DNA of 64,000 nucleotides from Escherichia phage vB_EcoM_011D4. Positions 3,213-51,084 of this stretch are shown here, in pieces. Position numbers and translations under genes: made by a program. The number at the start of each line of letters is the position of its first letter. Positions within the stretch are counted from its first letter, which is position 1. Below the pieces are notes generated by a model that was given only the letters and a program-made list of their open reading frames with translations, was not told the DNA's origin and ran no database searches. The stretch is taken from sequence record MT478991.1. One strand, written 5' to 3'.

Positions 3213-3635
3213 TTATTGGTCTACTTTCAAAACAACCGCCGACATTTTACCCGCCAGTCGTTTTGGATTCTCTATAATCATTCGGCAGCATAGACCGTGA
3301 TACGGCTTACCCTCTTCGATTAGATCTACTGTCATCCCGATCCACATGTTACCGTCAGTAATTTCTAATCGATTAGGTCTGTCTTCCATTTTCAGGAAGT
3401 CGAAGATCTCCGGCAAACGAGTTTCTATCTTATTGAATAGTTCCATTGTCTTATGTTCATCGATATGACGATCGGTTAGACGGTCGATCATATGCGGACT
3501 AAAGCGAATGAAAATATACTCACCATAACCATCATTCAAGCACTTTTCTTTGATCTGTGCATTGGTTTTGCGCATTTCGGTTTCGAAGAATCTACGCAGC
3601 TTACTACGGCGAACATGTACGTTAATTGTTTCCAT
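3213..3635 (-). CDS. hypothetical early protein (regB position by synteny; assignment tentative)
   Basis: ORF track gives 3213..3677; an internal Met (METINVHVRRSKLRR) preceded by AAGGA is the likelier start; size and position relative to tk resemble T4 regB but the sequence could not be verified. Confidence 0.4.
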   Translation of the reverse strand: METINVHVRRSKLRRFFETEMRKTNAQIKEKCLNDGYGEYIFIRFSPHMIDRLTDRHIDEHKTMELFNKIETRLPEIFDFLKMEDRPNRLEITDGNMWIGMTVDLIEEGKPYHGLCCRMIIENPKRLAGKMSAVVLKVDQ

Positions 3636-10599: not shown

Positions 10600-10785
10600 T
10601 CAGAAATATGCAATATAGTTTGCCAGTCCCACAGAGTCATCATTCGGCATTGCTTTTACTGCCAGTTCAAACCCTGCTTCAACTTTCTGTTTAGCGGATT
10701 CTTCGTTATAACCCCAGATTACCAGAATAGCTACTACGTTTTCTTTGCTTACTGCTTTCAGTGCTTTAGTGATGCGACGTGCCAT
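10600..10785 (-). CDS. hypothetical small protein
   Basis: 61 aa; GGAG upstream; own early promoter. Confidence 0.45.
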   Translation of the reverse strand: MARRITKALKAVSKENVVAILVIWGYNEESAKQKVEAGFELAVKAMPNDDSVGLANYIAYF

Positions 10786-10826
10786 AATTTGATTCTCCGT
10801 TTAAGAAAGTGTGTTTCGTTTCGATG

Positions 10827-10860
10827 GGTGTATTATGCTATAGGCCGGATCTGGTGTCAA
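10827..10860 (-). promoter_or_regulatory. early sigma70-type promoter (PeSL family, degenerate stem)
   Basis: minus strand TTGACA-17-CATAAT and the same conserved leader as the 9865 copy. Confidence 0.5.
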
Positions 10861-10884
10861 CAACTTTTTTAAAAAAATTTTAGG

Positions 10885-10912
10885 CAATAAAAAAGCCACT
10901 CCGAAGAGTGGC
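10885..10912 (-). terminator. rho-independent terminator (UUCG-type loop)
   Basis: minus strand AAGCCACTCTTCGGAGTGGCTT followed by a U-run. Confidence 0.55.
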
Positions 10913-11058
10913 TTATAGGGAAGGTAGCGAATCTTCCTTGTCTCCAACCTGCTAGCGGCCTAGCAAGTGAATGCTTTAGCGTACCGGATAGCCCACATAC
11001 GCTGTAATAAATGCGGCTAGGTGACGTCCAAATCATTCTAACCGCGCTGTCTTTAGTT
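10886..11058 (-). ncRNA. candidate small non-coding RNA (unknown family)
   Basis: about 170 nt between a late-promoter-like box and a strong terminator; several local hairpins; only ORF lacks a ribosome-binding site and would read through the terminator. Confidence 0.25.
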
Positions 11059-11063
11059 CACTA

Positions 11064-11282
11064 TTATTTATATCGCTTTCTCTCGCGACGTTTTTGATCT
11101 TCTTCCTTGATAGAGTTAAATGCATCAAAAAGACACATGACACTGATAATAAACATAACCGTATTTTCTACGATATCCCACGGCTTCGCATCAGTACAGA
11201 TCCCCCAAACGGTAAGAAATGCAAATAATGCAGAAGAGATCACAAGCATGATACTTGCTAAGATATAAAAAGTCATTTTCAT
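11064..11282 (-). CDS. small membrane protein
   Basis: 72 aa, hydrophobic core, basic C-terminus. Confidence 0.4.
   Translation of the reverse strand: MKMTFYILASIMLVISSALFAFLTVWGICTDAKPWDIVENTVMFIISVMCLFDAFNSIKEEDQKRRERKRYK
11065..11072 (-). promoter_or_regulatory. T4-type late promoter-like box (TATAAATA on minus strand)
   Basis: plus strand tatttata directly at the stop of upstream gene; no coding gene downstream before the terminator. Confidence 0.3.
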
Positions 11283-11473
11283 GGTTTTACCTCAATTCTT
11301 CGATATTCATCACACATCCACGCAGTAAGCAAGAATCCCAACACATAAGCAACAAAATACGTTAATGCTTCTTCTGGTTCCGTGCTATGTATCATCAGTA
11401 AACCAGCGAGAACAGTCTTAATAATTACATTTAAAATAATTAGCCACGCAAATAGTTTCATCGTATACCCCAT
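11279..11473 (-). CDS. small membrane protein
   Basis: 64 aa, hydrophobic. Confidence 0.4.
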   Translation of the reverse strand: MGYTMKLFAWLIILNVIIKTVLAGLLMIHSTEPEEALTYFVAYVLGFLLTAWMCDEYRRIEVKP

Positions 11474-11700
11474 TTCGGTCGAGTCTTTTCAAACTTATAC
11501 ATTCCGTAACAATCTCGAATCATCCACGTAACAAGAGCACCAGTCAACACAGACAACACACAGAAGAAGTAAAACGGTCCGGTTGCATTATCAACATGAG
11601 CAAGCCATGTAAAGAATACACATGCTAAGAATGTAAAGAACATCATAAAACACAAGAAAGCAAAATATTTTATGCTACTCATAGCGCCACCATACAACAA
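11458..11700 (-). CDS. small membrane protein
   Basis: 80 aa, hydrophobic. Confidence 0.4.
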   Translation of the reverse strand: MLYGGAMSSIKYFAFLCFMMFFTFLACVFFTWLAHVDNATGPFYFFCVLSVLTGALVTWMIRDCYGMYKFEKTRPKWGIR

Positions 11701-11785
11701 ATCATAAGAAACCCAAACGCAATTAGAATTGCATCAAATTTAGTGAACTCAGGTCCACCTATCAACATCATTCGTTCTATTTCGT

Positions 11786-12028
11786 TCATAGCGTACAAAG
11801 CCATTTAAAAGCACCACATAAAGCGAGCAGAATACTAGGTATAAACGAGACCATAACAAGTTTGCAAAAATCATCTAAGGTAACACCGGAATAGCTACCT
11901 ACTGTAACAACACCGATCATCAGACACAGAAAGAAAACAAATGCAATCATAAACAAAGTATTGCTAAACAGTTTAGTGATCATTAGACACCCCACGACGA
12001 TCAATTTCAAAAACTTTTTTACCATCAA
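11786..12028 (-). CDS. small membrane protein
   Basis: 80 aa, hydrophobic. Confidence 0.4.
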   Translation of the reverse strand: MMVKKFLKLIVVGCLMITKLFSNTLFMIAFVFFLCLMIGVVTVGSYSGVTLDDFCKLVMVSFIPSILLALCGAFKWLCTL

Positions 12029-12370: not shown

Positions 12371-12404
12371 GGGGTATCTTACTACCCCCGTTTCATGTTG
12401 TCAA
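12371..12404 (-). promoter_or_regulatory. early sigma70-type promoter with stem-loop (PeSL-like)
   Basis: minus strand TTGACA-17-TAAGAT; inverted repeat GGGGGTA/TACCCCC. Confidence 0.5.
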
Positions 12405-14917: not shown

Positions 14918-15003
14918 TACTGATTCCTCAAATGAAAATATTTATTAACAATTGTCGCTTTGCGACGTGCCGGAGGCACTGACTATTTTTTAACCGAAAC
15001 AAA

Positions 15004-15050
15004 TTTTCTATATTCTAAAGATCTTTCTTCGTTTTGGTTATATTTTAACC
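15004..15050. repeat. 45-nt conserved intergenic repeat, copy A
   Basis: ttctaaagatctttcttcgttttggt core identical to copy B near 49.8 kb; contains a 10-nt palindrome aaagatcttt. Confidence 0.6.
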
Positions 15051-15106
15051 AATAACTATATTTTTATACAGTAATAAATAAAACGGGTACTATACGAGGA
15101 CTTCTT

Positions 15107-49512: not shown

Positions 49513-49648
49513 AATATTTCCTCCATAGAAAGCAATATCATACTACAAGTTAATAACAAATACAAGTATCCGCGTAGCGGAAGCGAGCACAGCGAGCAAT
49601 AAAAACACTTCCAGTAATTGATTAATAAATGTTCGAAACAAATTTTTA

Positions 49649-49690
49649 TTATTCTATAAGATAAGTCTTCGTTTTGATCATAATTTAATC
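49649..49690. repeat. conserved intergenic repeat, copy C (degenerate)
   Basis: ttctataagataagtcttcgttttgatcataatttaatc aligns to copies A and B. Confidence 0.5.
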
Positions 49691-49792
49691 ATACATGTAA
49701 AAACTACACAAAAGGATATCGCTTCGCGAACTCCTACGGAGTATAACATTTGTGTTACAATATGTAGTGATTAATAATTAACCAAAGATACA

Positions 49793-49839
49793 TTTTCTAT
49801 GTTCTAAAGATCTTTCTTCGTTTTGGTCATAATTTAATC
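49793..49839. repeat. conserved intergenic repeat, copy B
   Basis: ttttctatgttctaaagatctttcttcgttttggtcataatttaatc; about 41 of 45 positions identical to copy A. Confidence 0.6.
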
Positions 49840-49890
49840 AAACAGTATTAATATTGTGCACATGTAAACTAAAATTATGTTAATAACAGA

Positions 49891-49920
49891 TACAAAAAAG
49901 CCGCCCAGAAGGACGGCTAA
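49891..49920 (-). terminator. rho-independent terminator
   Basis: hairpin agccg-cccagaagga-cggct with a minus-strand U-run. Confidence 0.5.
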
Positions 49921-49926
49921 TGTTAA

Positions 49927-51041: not shown

Positions 51042-51073
51042 TAAAAACAAAAAAGCCACCCCGAAGGATGGCT
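51042..51073 (-). terminator. rho-independent terminator after hoc
   Basis: hairpin agccaccccgaaggatggct with a minus-strand U-run. Confidence 0.5.
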
Positions 51074-51084
51074 GATAGATTTCA

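Follow-up and report, generated by a model that had tools for sequence, protein, structure and literature searches.

A candidate structured non-coding RNA of RB49-type phages, between a late-promoter box and a shared early terminator

A 278-nt gap between two small genes of Escherichia phage vB_EcoM_011D4 may encode a structured RNA. We analysed a stretch of 64,000 nucleotides from this phage (sequence record MT478991.1; hereafter the window), which a 511-nt query around the element places among the RB49-like T4-type myoviruses of the genus Krischvirus. The gap separates the homologues of ORF118c and ORF117c (hereafter ORF118 and ORF117). Within it, between the ORF118c stop codon and the terminator of a promoter-early stem-loop (PeSL) cassette, lies an element that, judging from its sequence, has about an even chance of being a lineage-specific, structured, non-coding RNA made from the minus strand. 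An earlier note, written from the DNA letters alone, had proposed a structured small RNA here. The gap does contain the minus-strand box, the inverted repeats and the terminator that it described. The proposal survives in part: the stretch is non-coding and conserved, does not form a tRNA and has a late-type box and a terminator as its boundaries, but the small RNAs of phage T4 to which it was likened offer an analogy only. The features of the element are as follows.

11065-11072, minus strand: TATAAATA box, an exact match to the T4-type late promoter -10 element, made of the last codons of the upstream gene, TAT-AAA-TA(A)
10915-11060, minus strand: candidate RNA body of about 146 nt, from the putative late start to the base of the terminator
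11013-11045, minus strand: predicted hairpin H1, GCGGUUAG..UGAU-UUGGAC-GUCA.CUAGCCGC, 12 pairs including two G-U; minimum free energy (MFE) -13.2 kcal/mol, z = -3.75
10978-11003, minus strand: predicted hairpin H2, a 7-bp lower stem and a short GG/CC upper stem; z = -1.4
10986-10996, minus strand: hypervariable tip of H2, with nine versions among 25 sequences and 1- and 2-nt indels
10943-10971 (core 10947-10968), minus strand: predicted hairpin H3 (inverted repeat I2), core CUUGCUAG-GCCG-CUAGCAGG with a possible 4-bp extension; MFE -13.1 kcal/mol, z = -3.1
10918-10940, minus strand: predicted hairpin H4, GGAAG/CUUCC; MFE -4.8 kcal/mol, z = -2.3
10914-10887 (hairpin 10893-10914), minus strand: predicted intrinsic terminator from a terminator scan, with a 9-bp stem, a UUCG loop and U6
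10832-10886, minus strand: AT-rich stretch and early sigma-70 promoter TTGACA-17-CATAAT, which drives ORF117 and lies outside the RNA

The element is a constant companion of one phage lineage. All 58 of 58 Krischvirus records, RB49, Phi1, JSE and GEC-3S among them, carry the region of the 511-nt query at full length and 95-99.6% identity. We collected 25 versions of the element, from the window, 14 GenBank phages and contigs of IMG/VR, ENA, Logan and JGI (the contigs being recovered through the upstream protein or through DNA patterns from the element), and every one is Krischvirus-type. Divergent metagenomic relatives, whose ORF118 differs from that of the window by a proportion of synonymous differences (pS) of about 0.3-0.6, keep the element at 94-97% identity. 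The metagenome scan gave two loci. Pattern scans of IMG/VR produced 25 matches, two of them real loci, both on Krischvirus-type contigs; the others were coincidences in coding sequence, for example in a FEN/RNase H motif. The element was found neither in one genome each of 185,579 species nor in E. coli genomes and plasmids, and the family of the ORF118 protein comprises only six clusters, all Krischvirus-like. Within the window, nhmmer detected no paralogue, only the element itself and a PeSL-type terminator at 51048-51078. At the level of sequence, then, the element is present in every Krischvirus record and restricted to that lineage. It is not described in any database or paper that we searched.

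That the stretch is non-coding is well supported. Two open reading frames (ORFs) enter it.

10869-11036, minus strand: ORF of 55 codons with an ATG start
10801-10947, minus strand: ORF of 48 codons with a TTG start, overlapping the ATG ORF

The earlier note had counted one ORF of 52 codons; its true length is 55, and the TTG ORF of 48 codons overlaps it. Its remark that the ORF lacks a ribosome-binding site and runs through the terminator was correct: there is no Shine-Dalgarno (SD) sequence, and both ORFs cross the terminator and the promoter. The 55-codon frame is intact in just 2 of 19 homologues, the window and RB49, which argues that the stretch is non-coding; in the other 17, indels of 1 or 2 nt disrupt it. 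In other homologues, changes in the length of T/A runs shorten the TTG ORF to 25 amino acids or fewer. A search of 5.8 billion proteins returned no homologue of the 55-residue product, save one automatic annotation in phage UPWr_E1. With the frame broken in 17 of 19 and no protein homologue, the choice of a non-coding reading over the ORF was well made.

Known RNA families do not account for the element either. ARAGORN predicts no tRNA or tmRNA gene anywhere in the 64-kb window, in keeping with the failure to recognise a cloverleaf from the sequence, and Rfam 15 gives no match in the window at the gathering threshold. At E ≤ 10, Rfam gives sub-threshold matches only, the best of them one at 24 bits against a gathering threshold of 100 and RNAI at 23 against 47, and it is the terminator that drives these.

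The 5' boundary of the candidate is the TATAAATA box. It had been described as abutting the upstream stop codon; the box is there, although it overlaps that codon rather than merely adjoining it. The window contains 11 copies of TATAAATA, compared with 5.7 ± 2.5 in shuffles. The other ten lie at the following window positions.

383, 16714, 27527, 38985, 44578, 45431, 47185, 47638, 53318 and 56928: TATAAATA boxes, each about 25-50 nt upstream of an SD sequence and ATG

Because all ten precede an SD sequence and ATG, TATAAATA seems in this genome to be essentially confined to promoter contexts and avoided elsewhere. The same observation makes the box at 11065-11072, the sole one of the 11 that no gene follows, plausible as a late promoter. 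RNA polymerase carrying gp55 recognises the late box without other elements. Since T4-type late transcription needs only this box, it is plausible that a late RNA begins near 11058-11060 and extends to the U-run, a length of about 170 nt. The box is retained in 24 of the 25 aligned versions. The remaining one, metagenome contig MAVA01000028.1 (L059), has a 14-nt deletion at its positions 3330-3352, equivalent to about 11061-11074 of the window, that removes GATATAAATAATAG; an extra A in an A-run shifts the frame of its ORF118, and the element itself is retained. These changes could be natural variation or sequencing error.

The 3' boundary is a strong predicted terminator with a UUCG loop and a U-run, which the earlier note had recognised and the terminator scan also detected. 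Its DNA reads AAGCCACTC-TTCG-GAGTGGCTT followed by T6, and its RNA AAGCCACUC-UUCG-GAGUGGCUU followed by U6; the fold reaches -14.8 kcal/mol (z = -6.0 against shuffles). The hairpin is invariant among the homologues, in which the U-run varies from 5 to 7, and it is annotated as a terminator in GEC-3S and Makalu phages. It is not, however, the private end of a small RNA but the stem-loop of a PeSL promoter-terminator cassette. PeSLs are repeated regulatory cassettes of RB49 and phi1 that mediate modular shuffling (PMC2839356). The terminator, the AT-rich stretch and the TTGACA promoter (an 11/12 match to consensus, preceded by TTTTTTATTGCCTAAAATTTTTTTAAAAAAG) have the hallmarks of one, lying between genes in a hyperplastic region of ORFans near dmd. 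Described PeSLs (Arbiol et al. 2010, PMC2839356; Comeau et al. 2014, PMC4122927) have the same promoter and stem-loop, the same setting of small ORFans and the same habit of repetition. By contrast, the roughly 150-nt body of the element occurs in none of them, and the stem here has a UUCG loop and lacks a GGGG...CCCC tract. The promoter part recurs at 6-11 places per Krischvirus genome, with second copies in three of the loci that we collected (L001, L002 and L004). The body is single-copy in the window by nhmmer and is therefore not part of the PeSL. As the terminator is that of the PeSL and of the upstream operon, the candidate RNA would also be the 3' untranslated end of an early operon.

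Between these two boundaries, the several local inverted repeats of the earlier note resolve into four predicted local hairpins, H1 to H4. The RNAalifold consensus consists of a long-range closing helix (11055-11063 with 10925-10934), then H1, H2, H3 and the terminator. The closing helix appears in the MFE fold as well, and it is mutually exclusive with H4. H1, H3 and the terminator each fold significantly better than shuffles, and the whole 187 nt has z = -3.2. The minus-strand fold holds seven G-U pairs.

Of the stems, H2 is the one that varies, and its lower part does so without losing its pairs. Pair 71:94 of its lower stem is G-C in 13 sequences, G-U in one and A-U in two; pair 70:95 is A-U in 13 and G-U in three; pair 73:92 is G-C in 15 and G-U in one. 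All four substitutions keep the pairing and not one change breaks it. Further up, the GG/CC mini-stem of the tip is kept and the loop is free to change. Read from the plus strand, or in DNA, the G-U intermediates would become A-C mismatches, so that the pairing, if it matters, is in the minus-strand RNA. No homologue differs in the H1 stem, and its loop shows one change, C to U. The H3 core is likewise invariant, and a C to A change in two phages breaks its predicted extension. In H4, an A to G change in one version (L047) still pairs as G-U. Conservation at the level of structure in related phages, which had been named as a test of the idea, is therefore found in H2, where G-C, G-U and A-U replace one another, and is not demonstrable for the other stems, which are invariant. 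Among the versions of the H2 tip, GATC, a Dam and restriction site, is present in CGATCC and TGATCC and not in CTATCC, TAATCC or TGACCC.

The body also varies less than the third codon positions of its neighbouring genes. The two genes that flank the gap are given here.

11064-11282, minus strand: ORF118c homologue (upstream gene), 72 amino acids, hydrophobic, ending TAT AAA TAA
10600-10785, minus strand, start at 10785: ORF117c homologue (downstream gene), 61 amino acids, Pfam DUF7421

We counted variable sites in the eight genomes that span the whole region, leaving the H2 tip and the deletion of one contig out of the body. In the body 6 of 135 sites vary, compared with 11 of 61 third positions of ORF117 (Fisher p = 0.004), a difference of about fourfold. 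Variable sites number 39 of 72 at ORF118 third positions, 11 of 107 in the PeSL promoter region and 5 of 11 in the H2 tip, so the tip varies at a rate comparable to or above that of third codon positions. The difference between element and PeSL promoter region is not significant (p = 0.13). ORF118 is of little use as a standard. It falls into two deeply diverged allele groups (pS 0.33-0.59; non-synonymous counterpart, pN, about 0.05-0.11), and the divergence stops abruptly about 9 nt before the stop codon, at a sharp mosaic boundary beyond which the sequences are 94-100% identical. For ORF117, pS is only 0.07-0.14. Relatives with 75-87% identity in the flanking genes agree at 93-100% across element, terminator, promoter and ORF117. 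Given this boundary and this block of low divergence, the fair yardstick is the synonymous sites of ORF117, and measured against them in these alignments the signal of constraint is real but modest.

How might such an RNA work? In early infection a transcript from a promoter near 12404 would cross a 52-residue ORF, dmd and five small ORFs that are mostly hydrophobic, and the candidate RNA would form its 3' untranslated part. In the late phase the TATAAATA box would, through gp55-RNA polymerase, start a discrete RNA near 11058-11060 that stops at 10887-10892, giving about 170 nt; such a discrete late species is probable. The most likely mechanism would be that of a trans-acting RNA, binding a protein or pairing with mRNA through its invariant parts, namely hairpins H1 and H3 and the single-stranded linkers AUUUAUUAC, CUAAAGCAUUCAC and CCUUCCCUAUA. 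The terminator hairpin and U-tail may confer stability and could serve as a 3' module of the Hfq type, and H2 would act as a structural spacer arm whose tip is free to vary in sequence.

The sequence does have traits of an Hfq-type small RNA (sRNA), with a U6 tail (5-7 in relatives) and the AU-rich linkers AUUUAUUAC and CUAAAG. We considered other partners too. By simple count, GGA motifs of the CsrA type are as numerous in the element as chance expects. A RegB/S1 site was rejected: GGAGACAAGGA fits GGAGRAYARAA poorly, with C at position 6. Mimicry of a CRISPR repeat (an RNA anti-CRISPR) was rejected as well, because 20-248 of 500 shuffles attained the local alignment scores of host repeats of types I-E and I-F, and the Rfam scan returned no CRISPR-DR family.

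Several observations weigh against a functional RNA. Without the terminator, the body has a z-score of only -1.55, so much of the folding signal of the whole region is due to the terminator; moreover, the plus strand folds almost as well, and thermodynamics alone therefore settles neither function nor strand. Covariation is confined to H2. The other 42 predicted pairs never vary and are uninformative either way, and the covariation score of the whole structure was reached by 12 of 500 shuffles. No target or partner emerged: a crude duplex scan against the 5' regions of genes in the window did no better than shuffles (0.18). In the literature that we searched there is nothing on small RNAs or transcriptomes of RB49 or other Krischviruses that would speak for expression. 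If contig L059 is a natural variant, it has the element and no box, which means either that the phage can do without a separate late transcript or that the contig is faulty. Finally, a single ancient recombination event would suffice to produce the jump in divergence at the ORF118 stop, and part of the conservation of the element may reflect recent exchange rather than selection, because the block of element, PeSL and ORF117 is less diverged than its surroundings.

These last points are the heart of the alternative that survives best, which we regard as unlikely but far from negligible. It holds that the body is a passive 3' untranslated spacer that owes its low variation to PeSL-mediated exchange of blocks among co-infecting Krischviruses, its hairpins being of generic use at most, for example as a brake on 3' exonucleases or as insulation between the dmd operon and the promoter that follows. 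The mosaic-like block of high identity, the low pS of ORF117 beside that of ORF118 and the weak z-score of the body all agree with it, as does the fact that the element is not significantly better conserved than the PeSL promoter region. PeSLs are, besides, documented sites of recombination (PMC2839356). What such exchange does not readily explain is the pattern inside the block. The body varies fourfold less than the third positions of ORF117, which belong to the same block, and the H2 tip changes at a neutral-like rate; hitch-hiking would not be expected to create such a contrast within 150 nt. Pairing in the lower stem of H2 survives all four of its substitutions. A non-coding insert of 150 nt is also unusual in this genome, which is so tightly packed that a crude ORF tiling of the 64 kb leaves only seven gaps of at least 120 nt. 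Should the element not be functional, it would be merely a well-conserved 3' untranslated region, an ordinary finding.

It is very unlikely, in our view, that the 170 nt are a regulatory leader through which the late promoter expresses ORF117 and the genes downstream of it by partial read-through of the terminator. The box does point towards ORF117, and T4-type genes often have both early and late promoters. The intrinsic terminators of PeSLs have been described as terminators or attenuators (PMC2839356). But this terminator is strong and invariant, with nine base pairs, a UUCG loop and U6, and we found no conserved pairing that could sequester its 5' arm. An antiterminator or riboswitch-like pairing with the terminator arm was accordingly rejected: the sole complement falls within the hypervariable tip of H2 and lacks conservation. 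Furthermore, ORF117 has its own near-consensus promoter 30 nt downstream, and the same gene in T1-like phages works without such a leader.

We rate as highly improbable a role at the level of DNA, in which the palindromes of H1 and H3, with their CTAG arms, would be sites for a DNA-binding protein, an origin or a recombination site. Three CTAG tetranucleotides and two similar CTAG(G)CCGC motifs do occur within about 70 nt, the recombination-prone PeSL adjoins them, and H1 and H3 are invariant rather than covarying. However, the seven G-U pairs of the fold would be mismatches in a DNA cruciform, and the G-U intermediates of H2 make sense solely for minus-strand RNA. There are no direct repeats or iterons in 10880-11080, and the motif is found nowhere else in the window.

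A more specific idea, and a long shot, is that the element is an anti-defence decoy related to the type III antitoxin ToxI, neutralising a ToxN-type endoribonuclease after host shut-off from the same operon as Dmd. The product of dmd is a protein antitoxin mimic, and dmd is a known counter-defence gene. The 13 nt GATTCGCTACCTT (10921-10933, within H4) are identical at 13 of 13 positions to the hairpin core of a ToxI repeat variant from an E. coli plasmid (L069) and at 12 of 13 to that of classical ToxI. On the correct strand, the element is the top match of a hidden Markov model (HMM) of the ToxI unit in the whole 64-kb window; its layout of promoter, RNA and terminator is that of toxI; and 49 E. 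coli plasmids carry identical ToxI repeats, which makes the host ranges overlap. The lead is attractive only because dmd shares the operon and because the literature offers a precedent in the pseudo-ToxI of a phage (Blower et al. 2012, PMC3475682). Yet the HMM match has E = 0.43-0.8, and once gaps are allowed the element does not stand out among 3,192 windows of this genome. Genuine toxI loci consist of 3-5.5 tandem repeats of about 36 nt, whereas 10880-11080 holds none. The 3' half of the ToxI unit, of which the GCUAGAA tail with C27/U28 is a part, is not in register, the terminator arm standing in its place; in ToxI that tail is essential for binding of ToxN (PMC3475682). The match is also post hoc, the family having been picked after the sequence had been seen. 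A broader form of the idea, in which the element acts alongside Dmd in an 'anti-toxin operon' as an RNA-based anti-defence factor, being either a diverged, non-repetitive ToxI-like decoy or a decoy for some other RNA-binding nuclease of the host, strikes us as just as remote. On that reading early RNA would come from the 3' end of the operon and late RNA from a promoter of the element's own, and the fast-changing H2 tip would reflect an arms race or the avoidance of a host nuclease or restriction site.

The genuine toxI loci yielded two observations of their own. The classical 36-nt ToxI repeat of Pectobacterium plasmid pECA1039 is found unchanged on dozens of small mobilizable plasmids of E. 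coli, Salmonella and Klebsiella (L068-L070), and Rfam 15 assigns genuine toxI arrays to no family at E ≤ 0.01.

Last, a small protein gene in either the 55-residue ATG frame or the 48-residue TTG frame, for which automatic coding-sequence (CDS) calls in three deposited genomes might speak (all three calls differ, and one is on the opposite strand), is next to impossible and effectively refuted already by the broken and truncated frames, the lack of an SD sequence, the reading across terminator and promoter and the missing protein homologue.

We return to the candidate RNA and its setting. The genes around it are homologues of dmd, 55.3 and the DUF7421 gene, with dmd upstream on the same strand. 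The early promoter near 12404 precedes dmd and the five small ORFs that lie between dmd and the element (41-80 amino acids, 11279-12028, minus strand); these ORFs, mostly hydrophobic and without a Pfam match where tested, are likely to be membrane peptides. The earlier note had called the locus equivalent to the tRNA region of T4, which it is not, since the window has no tRNA gene at all and the neighbours are dmd and 55.3 homologues. In the RB49 and GEC-3S records the gap is unannotated, save for terminator and promoter features in GEC-3S. The crude tiling also picked out AT-rich gaps (GC 0.30) at 49513-49926 (414 nt) and 14918-15106 (189 nt), neither with an ORF of at least 40 codons.

Downstream of the terminator, the minus-strand segment 10600-10863, with the early promoter, the 5' leader and ORF117, is common to more than 100 T1-like siphoviruses of about 50 kb, Shigella phage SH6 for example (L006-L021). 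The cassettes share 71-78% nucleotide and 77-80% protein identity, the similarity beginning at the -35 region, a pattern suggestive of horizontal exchange between a myovirus and siphoviruses at a PeSL boundary. We rejected a link between the element and ORF117: the T1-like phages have the promoter and ORF117 without the element. The PeSL itself has other relatives. A 45-nt segment at 10850-10894, covering the AT-rich and -35 part, is 89-91% identical to unannotated stretches of four Proteus phages and one Pseudomonas phage of about 58 kb. A second PeSL on the minus strand of the window, at 51048-51078, has the UUCG-loop terminator GCCATCCTTCGGGGTGGC and a T-run, followed by a TTGACA...TATAAT promoter and very small ORFs. 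Five metagenomic contigs (L003, L048, L049, L050 and L051) end inside or just past the PeSL that adjoins the element, as expected if assemblers break at a repeated cassette.

The candidate RNA belongs to a known kind, that of phage small RNAs and 3' untranslated region (UTR) elements. Its closest analogues, although not homologues to judge from the comparison, are rnaC (species 1) and rnaD (species 2) of T4, late RNAs of 139 and 119 nt and of unknown function (PMC9697503). Like them it is small, of similar size and from a T4-type phage, and it has a putative late-type promoter. However, rnaC and rnaD belong to the tRNA cluster and undergo maturation along with the tRNAs, and a tRNA-like T-arm is present in rnaC, whereas the candidate has no T-arm, no tRNA gene in the window and an intrinsic terminator as its 3' end. 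Nor does it resemble them in sequence, as blastn and nhmmer comparisons with rnaC and rnaD from the T4 record gave chance-level matches only. A second likeness is to the terminator-bounded sRNAs derived from 3' UTRs (reviewed in PMC9438474). Like these, the candidate lies at the 3' end of an operon and shares the operon's terminator; an internal promoter may lie where the upstream coding sequence ends, and the candidate has a U-tail, AU-rich linkers and a conserved sequence. It would be larger and more structured than most of them, at about 170 nt and four hairpins.

Virulent T4-type phages are known for taking over the host by means of proteins, and very few non-coding RNAs have been described in them. 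A conserved, single-copy, terminator-bounded RNA in all RB49-type phages would be a tractable addition to them, short, dispensable-looking and readily deleted; several of these phages serve in therapy or have been suggested for it. If functional, it could explain why this spacer has survived in a region otherwise shuffled by PeSL recombination, and, with dmd adjoining, it could reveal regulation of host systems, or protection against them, at the level of RNA.

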